A stretch of 60,000 bases of DNA, from assembly GCA_038087875.1 (NCBI GenBank), contig CM075989.1:19532001-19592000 (forward strand), read 5' to 3'. The notes under the pieces were generated by a model, which saw only the letters and a list, made by a program, of their open reading frames with translations, did no database searches and had not been told where the DNA came from. Positions 35,586-59,759 of the stretch are shown here, piece by piece. This DNA is from Malacoraja senta (lineage: Eukaryota). Position 1 is the stretch's first letter, and each line of letters begins with the position of its first letter. A program made the position numbers and the translations under genes.

Positions 35586-37136
35586 CATACATAGATACAT
35601 AGAAATTAGGTGCAGGAGTAGGCCATTCGGCCCTTCGAGCCTGCACCGCCATTCAATACGATCATGGCTGATCATCCAACTCAGTATCCCGTACCTGCCT
35701 TCTCTCCATACCCCCTGATCCCTTTAGCCACAAGGGCCACATCTAATTCCCTCTTAAATATAGCCAATGAACTGGCCTCAACTACCCTCTGTGGCAGAGA
35801 GTTCCAGAGATTCACCACTCTCTGTGTGAAAAAGTTTTTCCTCATCTCGGTCTTAAAGGATTTTCCCCTTATCCTTAAGCTGTGACCCCTTGTCCTGGAC
35901 TTCCCCAACATCGGGAACAATCTTCCTGCATCTAGCCTGTCCAACCCCATAAGAATCTTGTACGTTTCTATAAGATCCCCTCTCAATCTCCTAAATTCTA
36001 GCGAGTATAAGCCAAGTCTATCCAGTCTTTCTTCATATGAAAGTCCTGACATCCCAGGAATCAGTCTGGTGAACCTTCTCTGCACTCCCTCTATGGCTAT
36101 AATGTCCTTCCTCAGATTTGGAGACCAAAACTGTACGCAATACTCCAGGTGTGGTCTCACCAAGACCCTGTACAACTGCAGTAGAACCTCACTGCTCCTA
36201 TACTCAAATCCTCTTGCTATGAAGGCCAACATACCATTCGCTTTCTTCACTGCCTGCTGCACCTGCATGCCTACTTTCAATGACTGGTGTACCATGACAC
36301 CCAGGTCTCGCTGCATCTCCCCATTTCCTAATCGGCCACCATTTAGATAATAGTCTGCCTTCCCGTTTTTGCTACCAAAGTGGATAACCTCACATTTATC
36401 CACATTATACTGCATCTGCCAAACATTTGCCCACTCACCCAGCCTATCCAAGTCACCTTGCAGTCTCCTAGCATCCTCCTCACAGCTAACACTGCCCCCC
36501 AGCTTAGTGTCATCCGCAAACTTGGAGATGTTGCTTTCAATTCCCTCGTCCAGATCATTAATATAAATTGTAAATAGCTGGGGTCCCAGCACTGAGCCTT
36601 GTGGTACCCCACTAGTCACTGCCTGCCATTGTGAAAAGGACCCGTTTACTCCTACTCTTTGCTTCCTGTTTGCCAGCCAGTTCTCTATCCACATCAATAC
36701 TGAACCCCCAATACCGTGTGATTTAAGTTTGTATCCTAATCTCTTATGTGGTACCTTGTCGAAAGCCTTCTGAAAGTCCAGATACAACACATCCACTGGT
36801 TCTCCCCTATCCACTCTACTAGTTACATCCTCGAAAAATTCTATAAGATTCGTCAGACACGATTTACCTTTCGTAAATCCATGCTGACTTTGTCCAATGA
36901 TTTCACCACTTTCCAAATGTGCTGCTATCCCATCTTTAATAACTGACTCTAGCAGTTTCCCCACTACCGATGTTAGACTAACTGGTCTGTAATTCCCCGT
37001 TTTCTCTCTCCCTCCCTTCTTAAAAAGTGGGGTTACGTTTGCTACCCTCCAATCCTCAGGAACTACTCCAGAATCTAAAGAGTTTTGAAAAATTATCACT
37101 AATGCATCCACTATTTCTGGAGCTACTTCCTTAAGT
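35586..37136 (-). mobile_element. Young CR1 LINE with RT frame uninterrupted up to the assembly gap
   Basis: GNYRPVSLTS, LDFQKAFDKVPH, GVPQGSVLGP and KFADD motifs; no stop between 37136 and 35681; (tctatgta)n tail. Confidence 0.95.
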
Positions 37137-37336
37137 NNNNNNNNNNNNNNNNNNNNNNNNNNNNNNNNNNNNNNNNNNNNNNNNNNNNNNNNNNNNNNNN
37201 NNNNNNNNNNNNNNNNNNNNNNNNNNNNNNNNNNNNNNNNNNNNNNNNNNNNNNNNNNNNNNNNNNNNNNNNNNNNNNNNNNNNNNNNNNNNNNNNNNNN
37301 NNNNNNNNNNNNNNNNNNNNNNNNNNNNNNNNNNNN
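37137..37336. other. Assembly gap (200 N)
   Basis: Seen directly. Confidence 1.
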
Positions 37337-51466: not shown

Positions 51467-54188
51467 TAAATTGTTGAGGGAGGGAATTAGTTACTGAGAA
51501 ATAAGTCGGGGAGCGGAATTGCTCGGAGCTAGCAGAGCGGCGATGGACTAAACAACCCCGTTCTGCGTTGTAAGAAAAATACATTGGTGCATTGATGTCT
51601 TGCCCCGCGTTGCCTTCAAACACATCGCAATGCCCTTTGAGAGAAAGACTCTTGCACGCAGGTCTCACCAGCTATCTTGATGTCCTCCTTCCCCATTGCC
51701 CTATTGATCGCCCTTCATGATTTACAAAGCAAGTGGCACTTGAGAAGGGGGGGATGAATGGTCAGGACAGCCCGCTGTATGCCCTTCTTCCCTGCTAATC
51801 ACCGAGGAAATAGTGAATCCGCACATCACATCATACTGGGGTCAATAATGAGCCAGCCTCGCAATACATAAACGCCACTAAGTGGATTTTTTAGTGGCAC
51901 AGTCGCTGGATGGGAAACAAATAGGTTTAATTCTAATGGAACACATTTTGCAATGGAGAGAGCGGTGACAATCTTAATCTAACATCCAGGTATGCAACAA
52001 GCATTGAAGTTACGTTTTCAAAAACATATTTCATTTATCCAAGAAATCCATAGGCAATTTTCACTTCAGGGAGCATACAATAGGGTGAAAACAGATGGAA
52101 TTTAGGCTTTTATAAGAAATCTTTTATTTTCTCCCACATAGAACAGATTAAGTTATCATTCATCAAATCAGTAAATTAGACAAAGTATAATTGAATAGTC
52201 TGAAGAAGGATCCCGACCCAAAACGTCACCCATCCATGTCCTCCAAGGATGTTGCTTGACCCGAAGAGTTACTTCAGCATTCCTCTGTCATTTATTAATT
52301 CTACATTCTTGTGCTTTTTTTCTGCTGATAACATTATTGTACTAAATTCATTCTTGACATAATGACTACACAGCTGTTGGAATGTCTTTCCGTAGTAGAA
52401 ATTGGTGAACTAATTCTTTTAGAATTCTTAAGTAGTTTACAATATGCTTTATTTTTCCATTCTGGTCAATATTTAATTCTGTTGTCTTCTGTAAGTTATA
52501 ATTTGCCAATTTTAGCATTTTTATGACACAACTCGGTACACTCTAACATTTTTAGTGCTGTTGCCAAGGCAACGGTATTGAGGCCTTGTTCTGTGGAGCC
52601 TCCTTCCTGAGAACCTCAGACTTACCTGTTTTCTCTCTTTGAAATTCATCCCCAAATTTATCTTTATGGCAAAGCTTTCAATTGCTTCTCTCCCCAGTAG
52701 GTAGTGTCCAACAGATACAGGATGAAGGGAACAATGTCCAGTGCAAGATAAAGTATGGTAAAGTTCGACTACAGATAGTTTGAAGGTCTCTAATGAGGTA
52801 TTTTGGAGGTCAGGGTCGTTCTCTAGTTAGTGAGAGGATGGTTCAGTTGCCTGATAACAGCTGGGAAGAAACTGTCCCTGAATCTGGAGGTGTGCTTTTT
52901 CACTCTTGCCAAATGGGAGAGGGGAGAAGAGGGAGTGTCTGGCTCTGCAAAGCAATCTCATCTCTTCACTTTCGTCTCGTTTCAAACGTCTCGGGATATT
53001 TCCTCGGTTATGGACGCTATTAATTTTATCATGGGATCTAGATTAGTGCACACAAGTGCTTCGCATTTCTGATAGCACTCCAGTGAATTCAAGGCACTGA
53101 CTGCTTCAAGGTTTCCATCACCCAGTTGAAATACATCTATTCCTCGTGACCAATTTTAAACTTTTTTCAGACCCAGCCTTGGCAATTATCATCATCGTCA
53201 AACAGCAGGAGAAAATGACAAGTTATGTAATGCAGAATTGATTTTTCGCACATTAATACTTGGCTGCCAGTACCAATTTGGAAAAAGTCTGAGTCTGTTA
53301 CAAGATACAGAACTGTTTGGCCATTCATTTCATTGGCCTTGAAGTGATAAACTGGGATAACAATTACTGCAAGTTATCAAGGAAAAGGTATCTTGCTATT
53401 TCCCCTGAACTGCTTGCAAGAACCAAATCTAATGGAGCTATCTTGAAGTTTTAAGTACAGTTTTAAAGACACAGCATGGAAACAGGCCCACTGGGTCATG
53501 TGTACATCCATCACTCACCCAGTTCACACTAGCTCCCTGCTATCCCACTTTCGCATCCACTCCCGCACGCCAGGGGCAGTTTACAGAGGCCAATTGACCT
53601 TCAAACCTGCACGAATTTTGGAGGAAACCGGAGCACCTGGAGGAAACCCATTCGGTCCGATGAAGAACGTGCAAACTCCACGCAGAGTGGATATGAAAGT
53701 GGGATAACGTAGAACTAGTGTTAACGGGTGATCGAAGGTCATCGTGGACTCGATGGACTGTAGGGGCCTGTTTCTATGCTGTCTCTCTAAACTAATCAGC
53801 AATCAGAGTGCAGCGAGGTAATCAGAGTGTAGCGAGGTAATCAGAGTGCAGCGAGTAATCAGTGGCAGTTGGAACGGAAGGGACGTCACGACCGCGGTGC
53901 CACAGGTGCCACAGGTGCGGCCCAGGGTTGTCACCGAGGGAGGAAGGACGGAGCCGCGGCTCGAGAGGCTAACAGAGCTAAGAGGTAGGCCACGCACTGC
54001 AAGGGAGCAGTGGACCAGACAGAAAGAGCGGACGGAATTACCACTAGACAGCCAAACCAGTAGGTAATTTACGGCTGGGGTAAGTACTTTCCCATTTATA
54101 GGAGGTAGGATTATATAAATAAGGGGTGTTTTAATACAGTAATCCGGGTAGGGGATTCTTAATAGGACCAGTTAATTACTTATATAAG

Positions 54189-55141
54189 ATGGGCGGCCAG
54201 GAGATGTGCCAATACTGTGAGATGTGGGAAATTGTCGACACCATTGATGTAGATGATCCCTACAGCTGCAGTAAGTGTTTGAAGCTAGCGGAACTCGAGC
54301 TCCGCATTGATGAGCTGGAGACCCAACTTCATACGCTGCGGTGCATCAGGGAGGGGGAGTATTACCTGGATGTTTTGTGCCAGGGGATGGTCACACCGAC
54401 CAGTTTAACTAATTCAGTAGTTAGTGAGCAGGGAAAGGAAGGTGTGGCCATAAGCGAGGCAGGTAGGGGGAACCAGGAGGAGATGCGGCAGGAGCCACAG
54501 CCCTTGTCCCTGACGAGCATGACCGAGGCTCTTACTCAATGTGAGGACGGGATCAGGGGCTGTGGGAGGGATGAGCAACCTGGCTGCAGCACCGTGGATC
54601 AGGGGGCCATTCAAGAGGGGGGAGTTAGAAGAAATGCCGTGGTGATAGGGGATAGTATTATTCGGGGGGTAGATAAGGTTCTCTGCGGCCAGCAGAACAT
54701 GTCCCGAAGGCTGTGTTGCCTACCCGGTGCTAGGGTTAAGGATATCTCTGCGATGCTGGAGAGAAATTTGCAGAGTGAGCGGGAGGATCCAGTGGTCGTG
54801 GTCCATGTGGGGACCAATGACATAGGAAGGACGAGGAAGGAGGATCTGCTGAACGAGTTTGAGCAGTTAGGGAATAAATTAAAAAGCAGAACCTCGAGGG
54901 TACTGATCTCCGGATTGCTACCTGAGCCACGGGCCAAATCGGCGAGGGTACGAAAAATTAAAAAGCTGAATGCGTGGCTCAAAGACTGGTGTGGGAAAAA
55001 TGGGTTTGGTTTCTTGGGCCACTGGCACCAGTACTGGGACAGGGGGATCTGTTCTGTAAGGACGGACTTCACCTGAACGGTGCTGGGACTGGGGTCCTGG
55101 CAAATCATATAACTAGGGCAGTAGAGAGGTCTTTAAACTAA
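54189..55141 (+). pseudogene. CR1 ORF1: CxxC...CxxC zinc finger, coiled coil and SGNH/GDSL esterase domain; one frameshift near 55042-55046
   Basis: CQYC...CSKC, LAELELRIDELETQL, VIGDSII, HVGTND; the missing DxxH (KDGLHLN) appears in the -1 frame after a G5 run and ends at TAA 55139-55141. Confidence 0.88.
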
Positions 55142-58084
55142 GTAGCGGGGGGGAGGTATCAAGGGGGGTAATAACGGCAGGGGTAGAGGAAATAGAGCAG
55201 GGTATCAGTGGGGAAACGGAAAATCAAAATGTGACAGGAGGATCCAGAATGTGTGAAGATAAAGCTCTAGATGTAAAAGGGGCAAAAACAGAAAGGAAGG
55301 GTAGTAAAAATCATCTGAAAGTGCTGTATCTAAATGCACGGAGTATTCGAAATAAGATAAATGAATTAACGGTGCAATTAAGTACATATAGTTATGATAT
55401 TGTGGCCATTACGGAGACATGGCTGCAAGGGGATCAGGATTGGGAGTTAAATATAGAGGGGTACTCGACAATTAGAAAAGATAGACAGGAAAGAAAGGGA
55501 GGAGGGGTGGCCCTTTTAATAAGGGAGGGAATAACGGCAATAGAGAGGAAGGATATTGCGTTGAAGGATCAGGATAGTGAAACAGCTTGGGTACAGATAG
55601 AGAATAACAAGGGGAAAAAAACACTAGTGGGTGTAATTTATAGACCTCCAAATAGCTGTGACGCTGTTAGTCAGAACATAAATCTGCAAATAGTTGACGC
55701 ATGTAAAAAGGGAACTGCTGTAATCATGGGGGACTTCAATTTTCATATTAATTGGGCAAACCAAACTGGGCAGGGTAGACTAGAGGAAGAGTTTATAGAA
55801 TGTATTAGAGATGGGTTCCTAGAACAGTATGTCACAGAACCGACAAGGAGGGAGGCAATCTTGGATCTGGTCCTGTGTAATGAAGCAGGATTAATTAAAA
55901 ATGTCATAGTTAGGGACTCGTTGGGAACAAGTGACCACAATATGGTCGAATTCCATATTCAAATAGAAGGGGAGCAGGTTGAAACTCAGGCTAGGGTACT
56001 TAGTCAAAATAAGGGGGATTATGAAGGTATGAGGACTGAGCTGATCAAAGTTGACTGGGATAGCAGACTCAAGAATAAGACGGTACATGAGCAGTGGTGT
56101 ACGTTTAAGGATCTACTGTATAACCTTCAAGAAAAATTTATTCCTATGAAGAAAAAAAGGGGTAAGGGAAAGAACAGTCAGCCATGGCTCAGTAAAACTA
56201 TAAAGGATAGTATTCGGCTGAAGGCAAGGGCATATAAGGTAGCTAGAGATAGTGGGAGGGTAGAGGATTGGGAAGCATTTAAAGGTCAGCAAAAAATAAC
56301 TAAGAGATTAATTAAGACGGGGAAAATAGACTATGAAAGGAATTTAGCGAACAACATAAAAACTAATAGTAAGAGTTTTTATAGCTATATAAAAAGAAAA
56401 AGGGTGGCTAAGGTGAACGTTGGTCCATTGGAGGGTGAGACTGGAGAGTTGTTGGTGGGGAACATGGAAATGGCAAAGGCATTAAACGAGTATTTTGTAT
56501 CAGTCTTCACCATAGAAGACACAAAAAATATTCCAACGCTGGATAAACAGGGGGCGGTAGGAATGGAGGAGCTAAATACTATTAAGATCACCAAGGAGGT
56601 GGTATTAGGGAAATTAATGAGACTGAAGGAGGATAAATCCCCTGGGCCTGATGGATTACATCCAAGGGTCTTGAGGGAGATAGCGGTGGGGATTGTGGAT
56701 GCATTGGTGATAATTTTCCAAAACTCCCTGGAGGCAGGAATGGTCCCAGTGGATTGGAAAATGGCCAATGTAACACCTATATTTAAAAAAGGAAGTAAAC
56801 AGAAGGCGGGTAACTATAGACCGGTTAGTCTAACATCGGTGGTGGGTAAAATGTTAGAGACAATTATTAAAGAAACACTAACGGGGCACTTGGATAAACA
56901 TGACTTCATCGGACAGAACCAGCATGGTTTTGTGAAGGGGAAGTCCTGTTTAACGAATCTGCTCGAATTCTTTGAGGAAGTAACAACCCGGGTGGATAAA
57001 GGGGAACCGGTGGATGTGGTATACTTGGACTTCCAAAAGGCTTTTGACAAGGTGCCACATAAGAGACTATTGCTAAAAATAAAAAAATTATGGGATTGGG
57101 GGTAATATATTAGCATGGGTAGAGGATTGGCTAACAAATAGGAAGCAGAGAGTGGGGATAAATGGTTCATACTCGGAATGGCAACCGGTAACTAGCGGGG
57201 TTCCGCAAGGGTCGGTGCTGGGACCCCAGTTGTTCACAATTTATATAAATGATTTGGAGGAGGGAACCAAGTGTAATATATCAAAATTTGCGGACGATAC
57301 AAAAATGGGAGGAAAAGTAGGGGATGAGGAGGATAGGAAGAGTCTGCAAAAGGATATAGATAAGCTAGGTGAGTGGGCAACAACTTGGCAGATGAAATTT
57401 AATACTAATAAATGTGAAGTCATTCACTTTGGGAAAAAAAATGATAGGGCAAGTTATTTTCTAAATGAGGTGGAGCTGCGTTGTAATGCAACGCAAAGGG
57501 ATCTAGGGGTAGTAGTACATGAATCACTAAAAGTTAGTATGCAGGTGCAGCAAGCAATCAGGAAGGCCAATGGAGTTTTGGCCTTTATTGCTAGGGGGAT
57601 TGAGTATAAAAACACGGAGGTCTTGCTGCAGCTGTACACAGTATTAGTGAGACCACATTTGGAATACTGTGTACAGTTCTGGGGTCCATACTTAAGAAAG
57701 GATGTACTGGCCCTGGAGGCAGTGCAGCGAAGGTTTACAAGATTAATTCCTGCAATGAGGGGATTGACATATGAGGAAAGGTTAAGTAGGCTGGAACTCT
57801 ACTCTTTGGAGTTTAGAAGAATGAGAGGCGATCTCATTGAAACATATAAGATCGTGAGGGGCCTTGATCGGGTGGATGCACCGAGTTGTAGAATAAGAGG
57901 GGGCTCTTTTAAAACTGAGATGAGGAAGAACTTCTTCACCCAGAGGGTGGTTAATTTATGGAATTCACTGCCCCAGGGAGCAGTGGAAGCAGAAACATTA
58001 AATATATTTAAGTCTAAAATAGATGGTTTTTTAGCTGCCAAGGGGATAAGGGGCTACGGGGAGAGGGCAGGGATATGGACCTAG
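55117..58084 (+). pseudogene. CR1 ORF2: APE endonuclease plus reverse transcriptase; +1 frameshift in an A7 run at 57081-57087
   Basis: YLNARSI, ITETWL, GDFN, SDH, GPDG, NYRPVSL, DFQKAFD, VPQGS, FADD; ~14-codon in-frame deletion near 57880 relative to other copies. Confidence 0.93.
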
Positions 58085-59759
58085 GTATGGTTAGTATAGT
58101 AAGACCTGAGTGATCTCCTGGACAACTGTCGATCGCCTGGATTGGGGTCGGAGAGGAATTTCCCGGATTTTTTTCCCGAATTGGACCTGGGTTTTTATCC
58201 GGTTTTTTGCCTCCCCCAGGAGATCACGCGGTTCTTGGGGTGGAGAGGGGTGATAGCGATATAAAGGGGAGGGTAGTGTCTTGTGTTCTGTGTCTTGTGT
58301 CTACTGTTTGTGGGTAAGGGTGTCTGTTTAGTGTTCAGCCATGAGCGAATGGCGGTGCGGGCTCGATGGGCCTGGTGGTCTACTCTCGCACCTACTTTCT
58401 ATGTTTCTATGTTTCTATGTAAATACATTCCATAATGGGGGGCCACCGGCCCAGGCAGACAGTGAACAAATGTTCGGCAAAAAACAAGTTTGGAAAAGAG
58501 TGGTCTGCTGGAGCAGTGATAGAGTTGCTGCCTTACAGCGGCAGAGAAGCGGGTTCCACTAATCTCCTCCACCTGCACGTGATCCATATCTCTCCACTCC
58601 CTACATATTCACGTATTCGCACATCCAAAGACCTCTTAAACGCCACTGTTGTATCTGCCTCAACCCCCACCTCTGGCAAACACGTTCCAGGCACCCACCA
58701 CTCACTGTGTTAGAAAGAAAAACGTTTGCCCCGCCCATCTCCCTCTCACCTTAAAGTTATGCCCTCTCGTATTCGACACTCCGGGAAAACGTTTCTGACT
58801 GTCGATCCCACCTATGCCTCCCCAAAACCGCTTTGTTTCATATAAACGGAAGATTTTATGTGCTTTCAAGATGACATGAAGAGAATCTGCTGGTGGTGGG
58901 GAATGGGCAATTCTCCACACATAATAAATGCAAGATTGTAAGTGGCTATAAATATGCTTTTCCTCACCAGCTTACATGTGCGTCATAGCGTCTAAGGGTC
59001 CTTGGGCCCATCTTCCCAACACTGACCAACATGCCCCATCTACACTAGACCCACCTGCCTACATTTGGCCTCTATCCCTCTAAACCTGTCCTATCCGTGT
59101 ACCCGGCTGGAGGTTTCTTAAATGTTGCAATAGTCCCTGCCTCAAATACCTCCTCCGGCAGCTCGTTCCATACACCCACCACCCTTTGTGTAAAAAAAGT
59201 TACTCCTCAGGTTCCCATTAATTCTTTTTCCCACCCTCACCTGAAACCTATGTCCCCTGGTTCTCGATTCCACTATTCTGGGCAAGAGACTGCCTGTTGT
59301 ATGCATGCACAGCCAGTACTTTGACTGTTGGGTGAACTTTTGTAACTTTGTCCCCACCACAATGTGGAGACAATTGTGTACTGCCTCGGTGGGGACTGCG
59401 ATATGATTTTACGGGTTCTATGCTAAACAAAGCCTTTCACTGTACCTAGGTACATGTGACTATAAAAAAAATAATTGAATTATATTTCAGGAGTAAAACA
59501 ATAAGGGACATTTCAAGTAAATGTTGTATGCACAAACCTTTCCCCTTGCAACAGTCAAAACAAAAAGGACTGTGGGTTAGAAATGATAAAATCAATGCAA
59601 GCAAATGTCCATTTGATAATATGGGTCCTAGGTAGACACAAAATGCTGGAGAAACTCAGCGGGTGAGACAGGATCTATCGAGAGAAGGAATGGGTGACGT
59701 TTCGGGTGGAGACCCTTCTCCAGACTGGGTCTTTTGGTATATGGGTCGTTTGGTAACTG

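Follow-up and report, generated by a model that had tools for sequence, protein, structure and literature searches.

The window analysed here is a 60,000-nucleotide (nt) stretch of the Malacoraja senta genome (assembly GCA_038087875.1, contig CM075989.1, positions 19,532,001 to 19,592,000, forward strand). It carries a CR1-type long interspersed element (LINE) whose two open reading frames (ORFs) meet at the heptamer TTTAAAC. In the sequences that we compared, this heptamer, the TAA or TAG stop that follows it and a G-tract 7-10 nt downstream are conserved across jawed-vertebrate CR1 families. We consider it likely that a programmed -1 ribosomal frameshift at this site produces an ORF1-ORF2 fusion. 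The features of the element, including its 5' and 3' untranslated regions (UTRs), are as follows.

53801-58420, plus strand: CR1-type LINE, near full-length
53801-54188, plus strand: 5' UTR of the element, opening with a 19-nt tandem repeat in 3.3 copies; the 5' end is approximate
54189-55141, plus strand: ORF1, with N-terminal Cys pairs, an SGNH esterase domain (Pfam PF13472, E 1.4e-10) and the C-terminus ...ERSLN-stop
55042-55046, plus strand: G5 run, one G fewer than the family majority; this 1-nt loss breaks the ORF1 frame
55114-55116, plus strand: TAG in the -1 frame, 25 nt before the ORF1 stop
55117-58084, plus strand: ORF2, with linker, APE endonuclease and reverse transcriptase (Pfam PF03372, PF14529, PF00078)
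55132-55138, plus strand: slippery heptamer T_TTA_AAC in X_XXY_YYZ phase, a candidate -1 shift site by sequence and conservation
55139-55141, plus strand: ORF1 stop TAA, directly 3' of the heptamer
55147-55156, plus strand: G7-A-GG tract, conserved downstream element and candidate stimulator, 8 nt after the heptamer
55163-55213, plus strand: further G-tracts (G6, G4, G3, G4), family-specific, the G6 being polymorphic
55229-55234, plus strand: out-of-frame ATG-TGA, seen in the sequence between the ORF1 stop and the next feature
55249-55251, plus strand: first in-frame ATG of ORF2, 26 codons before YLNARS, kept within its own family
58396-58420, plus strand: 3' tail (TTTCTATG)3, an 8-nt repeat end of CR1 type

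The element and its ORF1-ORF2 junction

CR1 LINEs end in a short tandem-repeat 3' tail instead of poly(A). By its domains and its by-eye likeness to named consensus rows, the element is a CR1 LINE with an esterase ORF1; it is a dead copy of a young LINE of cartilaginous fish. Rays, sharks and a chimaera supply its nearest named proteins, and the closest published consensus row by eye is SquAca CR1-17a (PMC13343379). ORF1 starts at the ATG at 54189, and past the G5 run the frame one base over reads DLFCKDGLHLN...AVERSLN to the TAA; an intact ORF1 relative, P0001, is 95% identical. Relative to the sister protein P0089, which is continuous over 958 aa and 99% identical over the first 612 residues, ORF2 of this copy shifts frame near 57084 and lacks 14 codons. 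No protease domain was found by a Pfam scan of the element's ORFs, and no second copy covering the junction was found within the window.

An earlier note on this DNA, made from the letters alone, had assumed a slip in the G5 run and had placed TTTAAAC in X_XXY_YYZ phase just before the stop, with ORF2 in the -1 frame. These claims held. We used contigs from four runs, representing four organisms, that covered 54900-55500 only, with a reporting threshold for changes of 5%. One extra G was present behind 55041 in all four runs, which confirms the slip independently. The heptamer, the ORF1 stop, the G7 and the ATG at 55249 (present as the note had it) had no change listed in any of them. The extra G combined with an unchanged junction in all four indicates that the slip is specific to this copy and that the junction is the family's own. 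Coordinates and phase of the heptamer were also right. The -1 frame is the ORF2 frame; it is open from 55117 to 57105, through the endonuclease, and the TAG at 55114-55116 limits the overlap of ORF1 and ORF2 to 22 nt.

TTTAAAC alone is a common word, with 12 copies on the plus strand of the window, and it is the sole in-phase X_XXY_YYZ word of ORF1. Under the element's own codon usage, the joint probability of T, TTA and AAC is 0.007-0.02. The SART1-type arrangement, a UAAUG in which the ORF2 AUG lies over the ORF1 stop, is found neither here (TAAGT) nor in the metagenome locus L001 (TAGAA).

Two smaller observations concern the same region. A -1-frame stop exactly 25 nt before the ORF1 stop (TAG here) recurs as TGA in L001 and in about six consensus rows by eye, with differing amino acids; it is not universal by protein column, and it may confine ORF2 entry to the slippery site. 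Run X3 shows losses of 1 nt and of 2 nt at 55241-55245, each at the same depth (about 9%); should the two be linked, one codon ahead of the ATG at 55249 would be missing and the ORF2 frame preserved.

Conservation of the junction among relatives

The junction was compared with its counterparts in metagenome loci, in published consensus sequences and in proteins. L001, with 33% ORF1 identity, ends CAT TTA AAC TAG, and its ORF2, in the -1 frame, likewise overlaps ORF1 by 22 nt; L001 is the only locus of the Leu-Asn-stop type among 80 (1/80). Its first in-frame ORF2 Met comes only after the NARS motif. The Asn of this motif in ORF2 aligns with N14 of the L1 endonuclease, an active-site residue, so a start at the first Met of L001 would cut the enzyme.

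The consensus table of PMC13343379 gives 400 characters per row, and only rows starting near the junction are readable there; dropped bases in its rows make the reading of phase and ATG unreliable. The word 'tttaaacta' had 23 matches in this table, of which 17 are ORF1 ends by eye and the other six L2, Rex1 or 5' UTR, counts that the full sequences could change. The 17 rows come from sharks, rays, chimaera, bowfin, coelacanth, bullfrog and crocodilians, plus one row labelled Crack. Since this search presupposes the heptamer, a heptamer-blind search by the upstream Asp-Gly-Leu codons was made. It returned 30 matches, including 10 CR1 ORF1 3' regions, nine of which reach the junction; TTTAAAC is present in all nine and TAA or TAG comes next in eight. 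Searches for synonymous or X-position variants of the heptamer gave none at an ORF1 end among the matches listed (24 of 73 and 23 of 38). Six longer motifs, again chosen without the heptamer, matched twice, neither time at a CR1 junction. A search of the supplement of Suh 2014 yielded three matches, of which the two listed fall in the 3' part of ORF2. The viral contigs and plasmids searched held no relatives, and the prokaryote genomes searched held none, or one unrelated-looking bacterial esterase locus (L081).

At the protein level we compiled 227 proteins, 66 with a DGLH-like motif of the esterase C-terminus and 83 with the endonuclease start motif. Named sources of the ORF1 relatives include sharks, rays, bony fish, Xenopus, lizards and turtles. 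Leu-Asn is terminal in 53 of the 66 ORF1-type proteins; it is followed by run-on sequence in three and leads into FKL in two, and the remaining eight are, by eye, one ending in LK, four truncated or mis-modelled and three of distant types. The residue preceding Leu-Asn takes 12 different values. Alignment A1 comprises 49 of 77 proteins picked for intact C-termini, so that its 49/49 Leu is not a fair count and the 53/66 figure is. In this 49-row alignment the median pairwise ORF1 identity is 37%, and the columns just ahead of Leu-Asn are freely variable.

The counterpart of this ending is found on the ORF2 side. FKL is the -1 reading of TTTAAACT, and FKLxxxGxG that of the heptamer plus the G-tract. 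The 83 APE-type proteins total 23,365 residues and contain the word FKL eight times, whereas 300 shuffles gave an expectation of 0; it stands each time in the linker and each time as FKLxxxGxG. These linkers are open over 46-108 residues, with no Met between FKL and the endonuclease in three of the eight (P0141, P0160 and P0165). ORF1 continues straight into FKL in P0078 and P0041.

Taken together, the consensus rows, the blind search and the partly listed variant searches reveal conservation at the nucleotide level beyond amino-acid need; given the depth of divergence among these sequences, drift is an unlikely cause of it. The earlier note had held that a lost heptamer or -1 phase beside a kept ATG would speak against a frameshift. 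Both heptamer and phase are conserved across families at the above median identity, and the in-frame Met is not universal.

The 80 metagenome loci are mostly distant relatives, with 24-38% identity over the matched part, and another type of junction is found among them. In 34 loci ORF1 terminates 33 residues from where the DGLH motif starts. The stop codon of 32 of these is TGA, a C follows in 32, and the codon after the stop is CTA or CCA in 30 (for instance L003, L004, L007, L008, L018-L020 and L026; in-frame TGA-CTA also occurs in L005 and L046). Of the 34, 17 have an in-frame ORF2 that is open as far as the endonuclease, 14 with a Met en route. UGA-CUA is a known leaky stop context, and these TGA-CYA ends with an in-frame ORF2 are candidates for stop-codon readthrough. 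The loci look like a few related families, and therefore amount to one or few observations. Their layout suggests that recoding to give a fusion is a recurrent feature of this clade. Separately, a distant relative, P0210, has esterase and endonuclease in one frame without a stop and is a candidate natural or mutational ORF1-ORF2 fusion.

Sequence downstream of the heptamer

The G-runs downstream of the stop are G7 (55147-55153), G6 (55163-55168), G4 (55180-55183) and G4 (55210-55213). The earlier note had located the first three correctly and had suggested that such tracts might stimulate the shift as a G-quadruplex. The G6, as it turned out, is not intact everywhere: a G>T change at 55166 breaks it in run X5 and, at 18% of the depth, in X2. 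A run of at least four G within 10 nt of the stop is present at 13 of the 17 consensus junctions by eye, in L001 and in this copy (15/19). The conserved first tract consists of 4-7 G located 7-10 nt downstream, usually followed by one or two bases and a further G2-4. Its spacing is that at which stimulators act, which is given as 5-8 nt in a passage of PMC3919603.

Stimulation by an intramolecular RNA G-quadruplex formed from the G7, G6 and G4 tracts would be a special case of frameshifting. No other 25-nt segment of the element scores as high by G4Hunter as the one at 55144 (2.2), and synthetic quadruplexes are described as stimulating -1 shifts at UUUAAAC best at a spacer of 6-8 nt, to about 7% (PMC3919603, in part); the spacer here is 8 nt. 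The same passages state that efficiency follows quadruplex stability, whereas the loops here would span 9-15 nt. ViennaRNA with quadruplexes enabled predicts none at this site, though a control folds. The G6 is broken in some runs, L001 scores only 1.16, and the first tract alone recurs across families. We regard a quadruplex in this family as possible, though improbable as the stimulator, and a four-tract quadruplex as an unlikely general one. Conservation supports the frameshift part of the earlier interpretation and leaves its quadruplex part without the same backing.

Local structure of other kinds was not predicted either. A hairpin 5-9 nt downstream is absent from the predicted folds: the 99 nt after the stop have a minimum free energy of -4.3 kcal/mol (z +1.15), and 180 of 200 shuffles fold as well, with folding tools that leave pseudoknots out. 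The downstream region of L001 is also predicted to be weakly structured. No Rfam frameshift element matched at the junction above threshold; one sub-threshold match to a CRISPR repeat was taken as chance. A distant partner is a weak lead. The G-tract (55143-55158) pairs with a C-rich word of the 3' UTR (58200-58217) at -22.2 kcal/mol, equalled by two of 60 shuffled targets in a post hoc comparison within one family, and with a longer query a site near 54700 scores equally well. The stimulator is the least certain part of our proposal. Rather than a four-tract quadruplex or a local hairpin, we favour the single conserved G-tract together with the adjacent stop, acting via a protein bound to it or via pairing with a distant partner.

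Translation of ORF2

Because the relatives keep the heptamer letter for letter, the copying enzyme is likely to be made by ribosomes that slip one base back and fuse both proteins. In the proposed sequence of events, a ribosome would hold tRNA-Leu and tRNA-Asn on UUA-AAC and have the stop codon ahead of it. Both tRNAs would, in a minority of passes, slip in tandem one base back, from UUA-AAC to UUU-AAA, after which CUA would be decoded as Leu and translation would continue through the linker, endonuclease and reverse transcriptase. The product would be a fusion of about 1,300 residues. The remaining ribosomes would stop and release abundant ORF1 protein, giving a low ORF2:ORF1 ratio as in gag-pol.

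Besides the missing hairpin and Rfam match, several observations weigh against a frameshift, most of them in favour of termination at the ORF1 stop and reinitiation, at an overlapping UAAUG if there is one and otherwise at the AUG that follows (55249) or some non-AUG codon; the heptamer would then be retained for pausing or as a termination context. Chance could explain the 36 open codons ahead of the ATG at 55249 (P 0.13). That ATG, unchanged in all four runs, is kept in its own family, has a fair context (A at -3) and would yield a complete endonuclease. A TAATG with its ATG in the ORF2 frame is present at three of the 17 consensus junctions (ScyCan CR1-1a, SquAca CR1-17a and CR1-6c), and P0086 and P0088 appear to begin at an ATG of this type. 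Five of the eight FKL linkers contain a Met, a second family (P0078, P0082, P0083) has one at the same distance as the ATG at 55249, and each case without a Met is a single copy, in which an ATG may have been lost. Related families also share ancestry, so that our counts cannot be treated as independent. A UGGGA word, 55 nt ahead of the stop, resembles the reinitiation motif of caliciviruses, but its distance is not constant (-81 in L001), and by eye it is absent from several consensus rows. Reinitiation is, in addition, the known mode in SART1 and L1, as described in parts of PMC2881922 and PMC5009743. Against it stand the lack of TAATG at 14 of the 17 consensus junctions, here and in L001, and the lack of any Met before the endonuclease in L001, P0141, P0160 and P0165. 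The exact X_XXY_YYZ word and the fixed -1 frame of ORF2 would be unnecessary for reinitiation, and the ATG-TGA at 55229 stands ahead of the ATG at 55249 as a decoy that would intercept scanning ribosomes; we count this decoy in favour of a frameshift. On balance reinitiation as the general route appears unlikely, and some families may use both.

Two further explanations dispense with recoding. Leu-Asn-stop and the following Gly-x-Gly could be kept for protein reasons or by descent, with codons that reflect A-rich composition and a slippery phase that is incidental. The C-terminal Leu could pack on the esterase fold, and the sense strand is purine-rich (GC skew +0.34), so that G-runs are common. 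Yet with a joint codon chance of 0.007-0.02 per lineage, all nine blind junctions keep the heptamer while adjacent columns vary. Distant relatives end seven residues later in variable residues, which indicates that the esterase fold does not need Leu-Asn. This explanation is largely refuted, and we give it very little weight. Still less credit goes to a spliced mRNA, in which a 5' UTR donor would be joined to an acceptor near the junction, as for retroviral env. Donor-like words do occur in the 5' UTR (54064, 54080) and, by eye, in several shark consensus 5' UTRs, and the TAG-ending families supply an AG. There is no pyrimidine tract, however, the AG is missing in TAA families, and L001 would still need an AUG.

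The preferred explanation, a -1 frameshift, can be set beside known systems. U_UUA_AAC is placed among the shiftiest heptamers on mammalian ribosomes in a passage of PMC5009743, and it is the heptamer of IBV. Coronavirus ORF1a/1b and retroviral gag-pol share with the CR1 junction the X_XXY_YYZ heptamer (PMC5009743, in part), and gag-pol also the order of a structural protein upstream and an enzyme downstream in the -1 frame. In contrast to these systems, no hairpin or pseudoknot is predicted here, the stop follows the heptamer directly and no protease domain was found; the fusion would therefore stay whole or need a host enzyme. Among LINEs, ORF2 of Dictyostelium TRE5-A and TRE3-A is said to need a -1 frameshift (PMC5911963, in part). 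Like the present element these are two-ORF LINEs of APE type; they belong to another lineage and host. What marks the CR1 element is its esterase ORF1, the defined U_UUA_AAC-stop site and a G-tract conserved across jawed vertebrates. L1 and SART1 are likewise bicistronic; ribosomes initiate anew on their ORF2, which depends on translation of ORF1 (PMC2881922 and PMC5009743, in the parts consulted). Some shark CR1 families share the UAAUG with SART1, but most CR1 junctions, including the present one, lack an overlapping AUG and have the heptamer. In Paramecium, consensus layouts of non-LTR groups 1-3 suggest +1 frameshifting, reinitiation or readthrough for ORF2 (PMC5405496, in part). Group 3 resembles our in-frame TGA-CYA relatives, as a suggestion only, since Paramecium represents a different clade and phase. 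The vertebrate canonical CR1 with esterase ORF1 (PMC13343379) agrees with the element in domain layout and junction.

The main text of PMC13343379 contains no occurrence of frameshift, overlap, start codon or translation. Term look-ups gave no statement of a CR1 frameshift in PMC3905857, PMC4120745, PMC5006619, PMC13405545 or the available portion of PMC11835228. No such statement was found in the literature searched, which did not extend to the early turtle, chicken and pufferfish CR1 papers, Kapitonov and Jurka 2003 or the Repbase notes; an earlier suggestion in print is quite possible. The junction is a real, deeply conserved feature, and TRE5-A of Dictyostelium is a precedent for a -1 shift in a LINE.

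CR1-group elements dominate most vertebrate genomes according to a passage of PMC13343379, and translation of ORF2 is settled for few LINEs only, each by new initiation (PMC2881922 and PMC5009743, in part). If CR1 does use a frameshift, its endonuclease-reverse transcriptase would be born attached to the esterase ORF1 protein, the annotated start of ORF2 would move upstream and host anti-frameshift factors might act on the element. If the shift site works without local structure, its stimulator would be of a new kind. As a wider and distinctly tentative proposal, one that we think has more chance of failing than of holding in full, jawed-vertebrate CR1 would make a Gag-Pol-like fusion by a -1 shift without folded RNA. 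The G-tract would be read by a protein (possibly the ORF1 protein, as feedback) with help from the adjacent stop, while sister lineages would fuse by UGA-CYA readthrough and the fusion would be under selection clade-wide.

Further observations concern the remainder of the window and the UTRs. About 250 nt of the 3' UTR (58085-58340) are unmatched by the other CR1 3' ends of the window. Older 5'-truncated CR1 fragments of about 70% identity lie at 35589-37135 and elsewhere, one of them interrupted by a 200-N gap (37137-37336), and short interspersed repeat copies are numerous. The consensus rows SquAca CR1-18 and CR1-3, from two dogfish families, contain a second TTTAAACTA(A/G) followed by G-rich bases in the 5' UTR. 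In the present element, 54064-54088 holds two splice-donor-like words, followed by an AT-rich stretch that ends in AG just before the ORF1 ATG, and the donor-like words make a 5' UTR intron possible.

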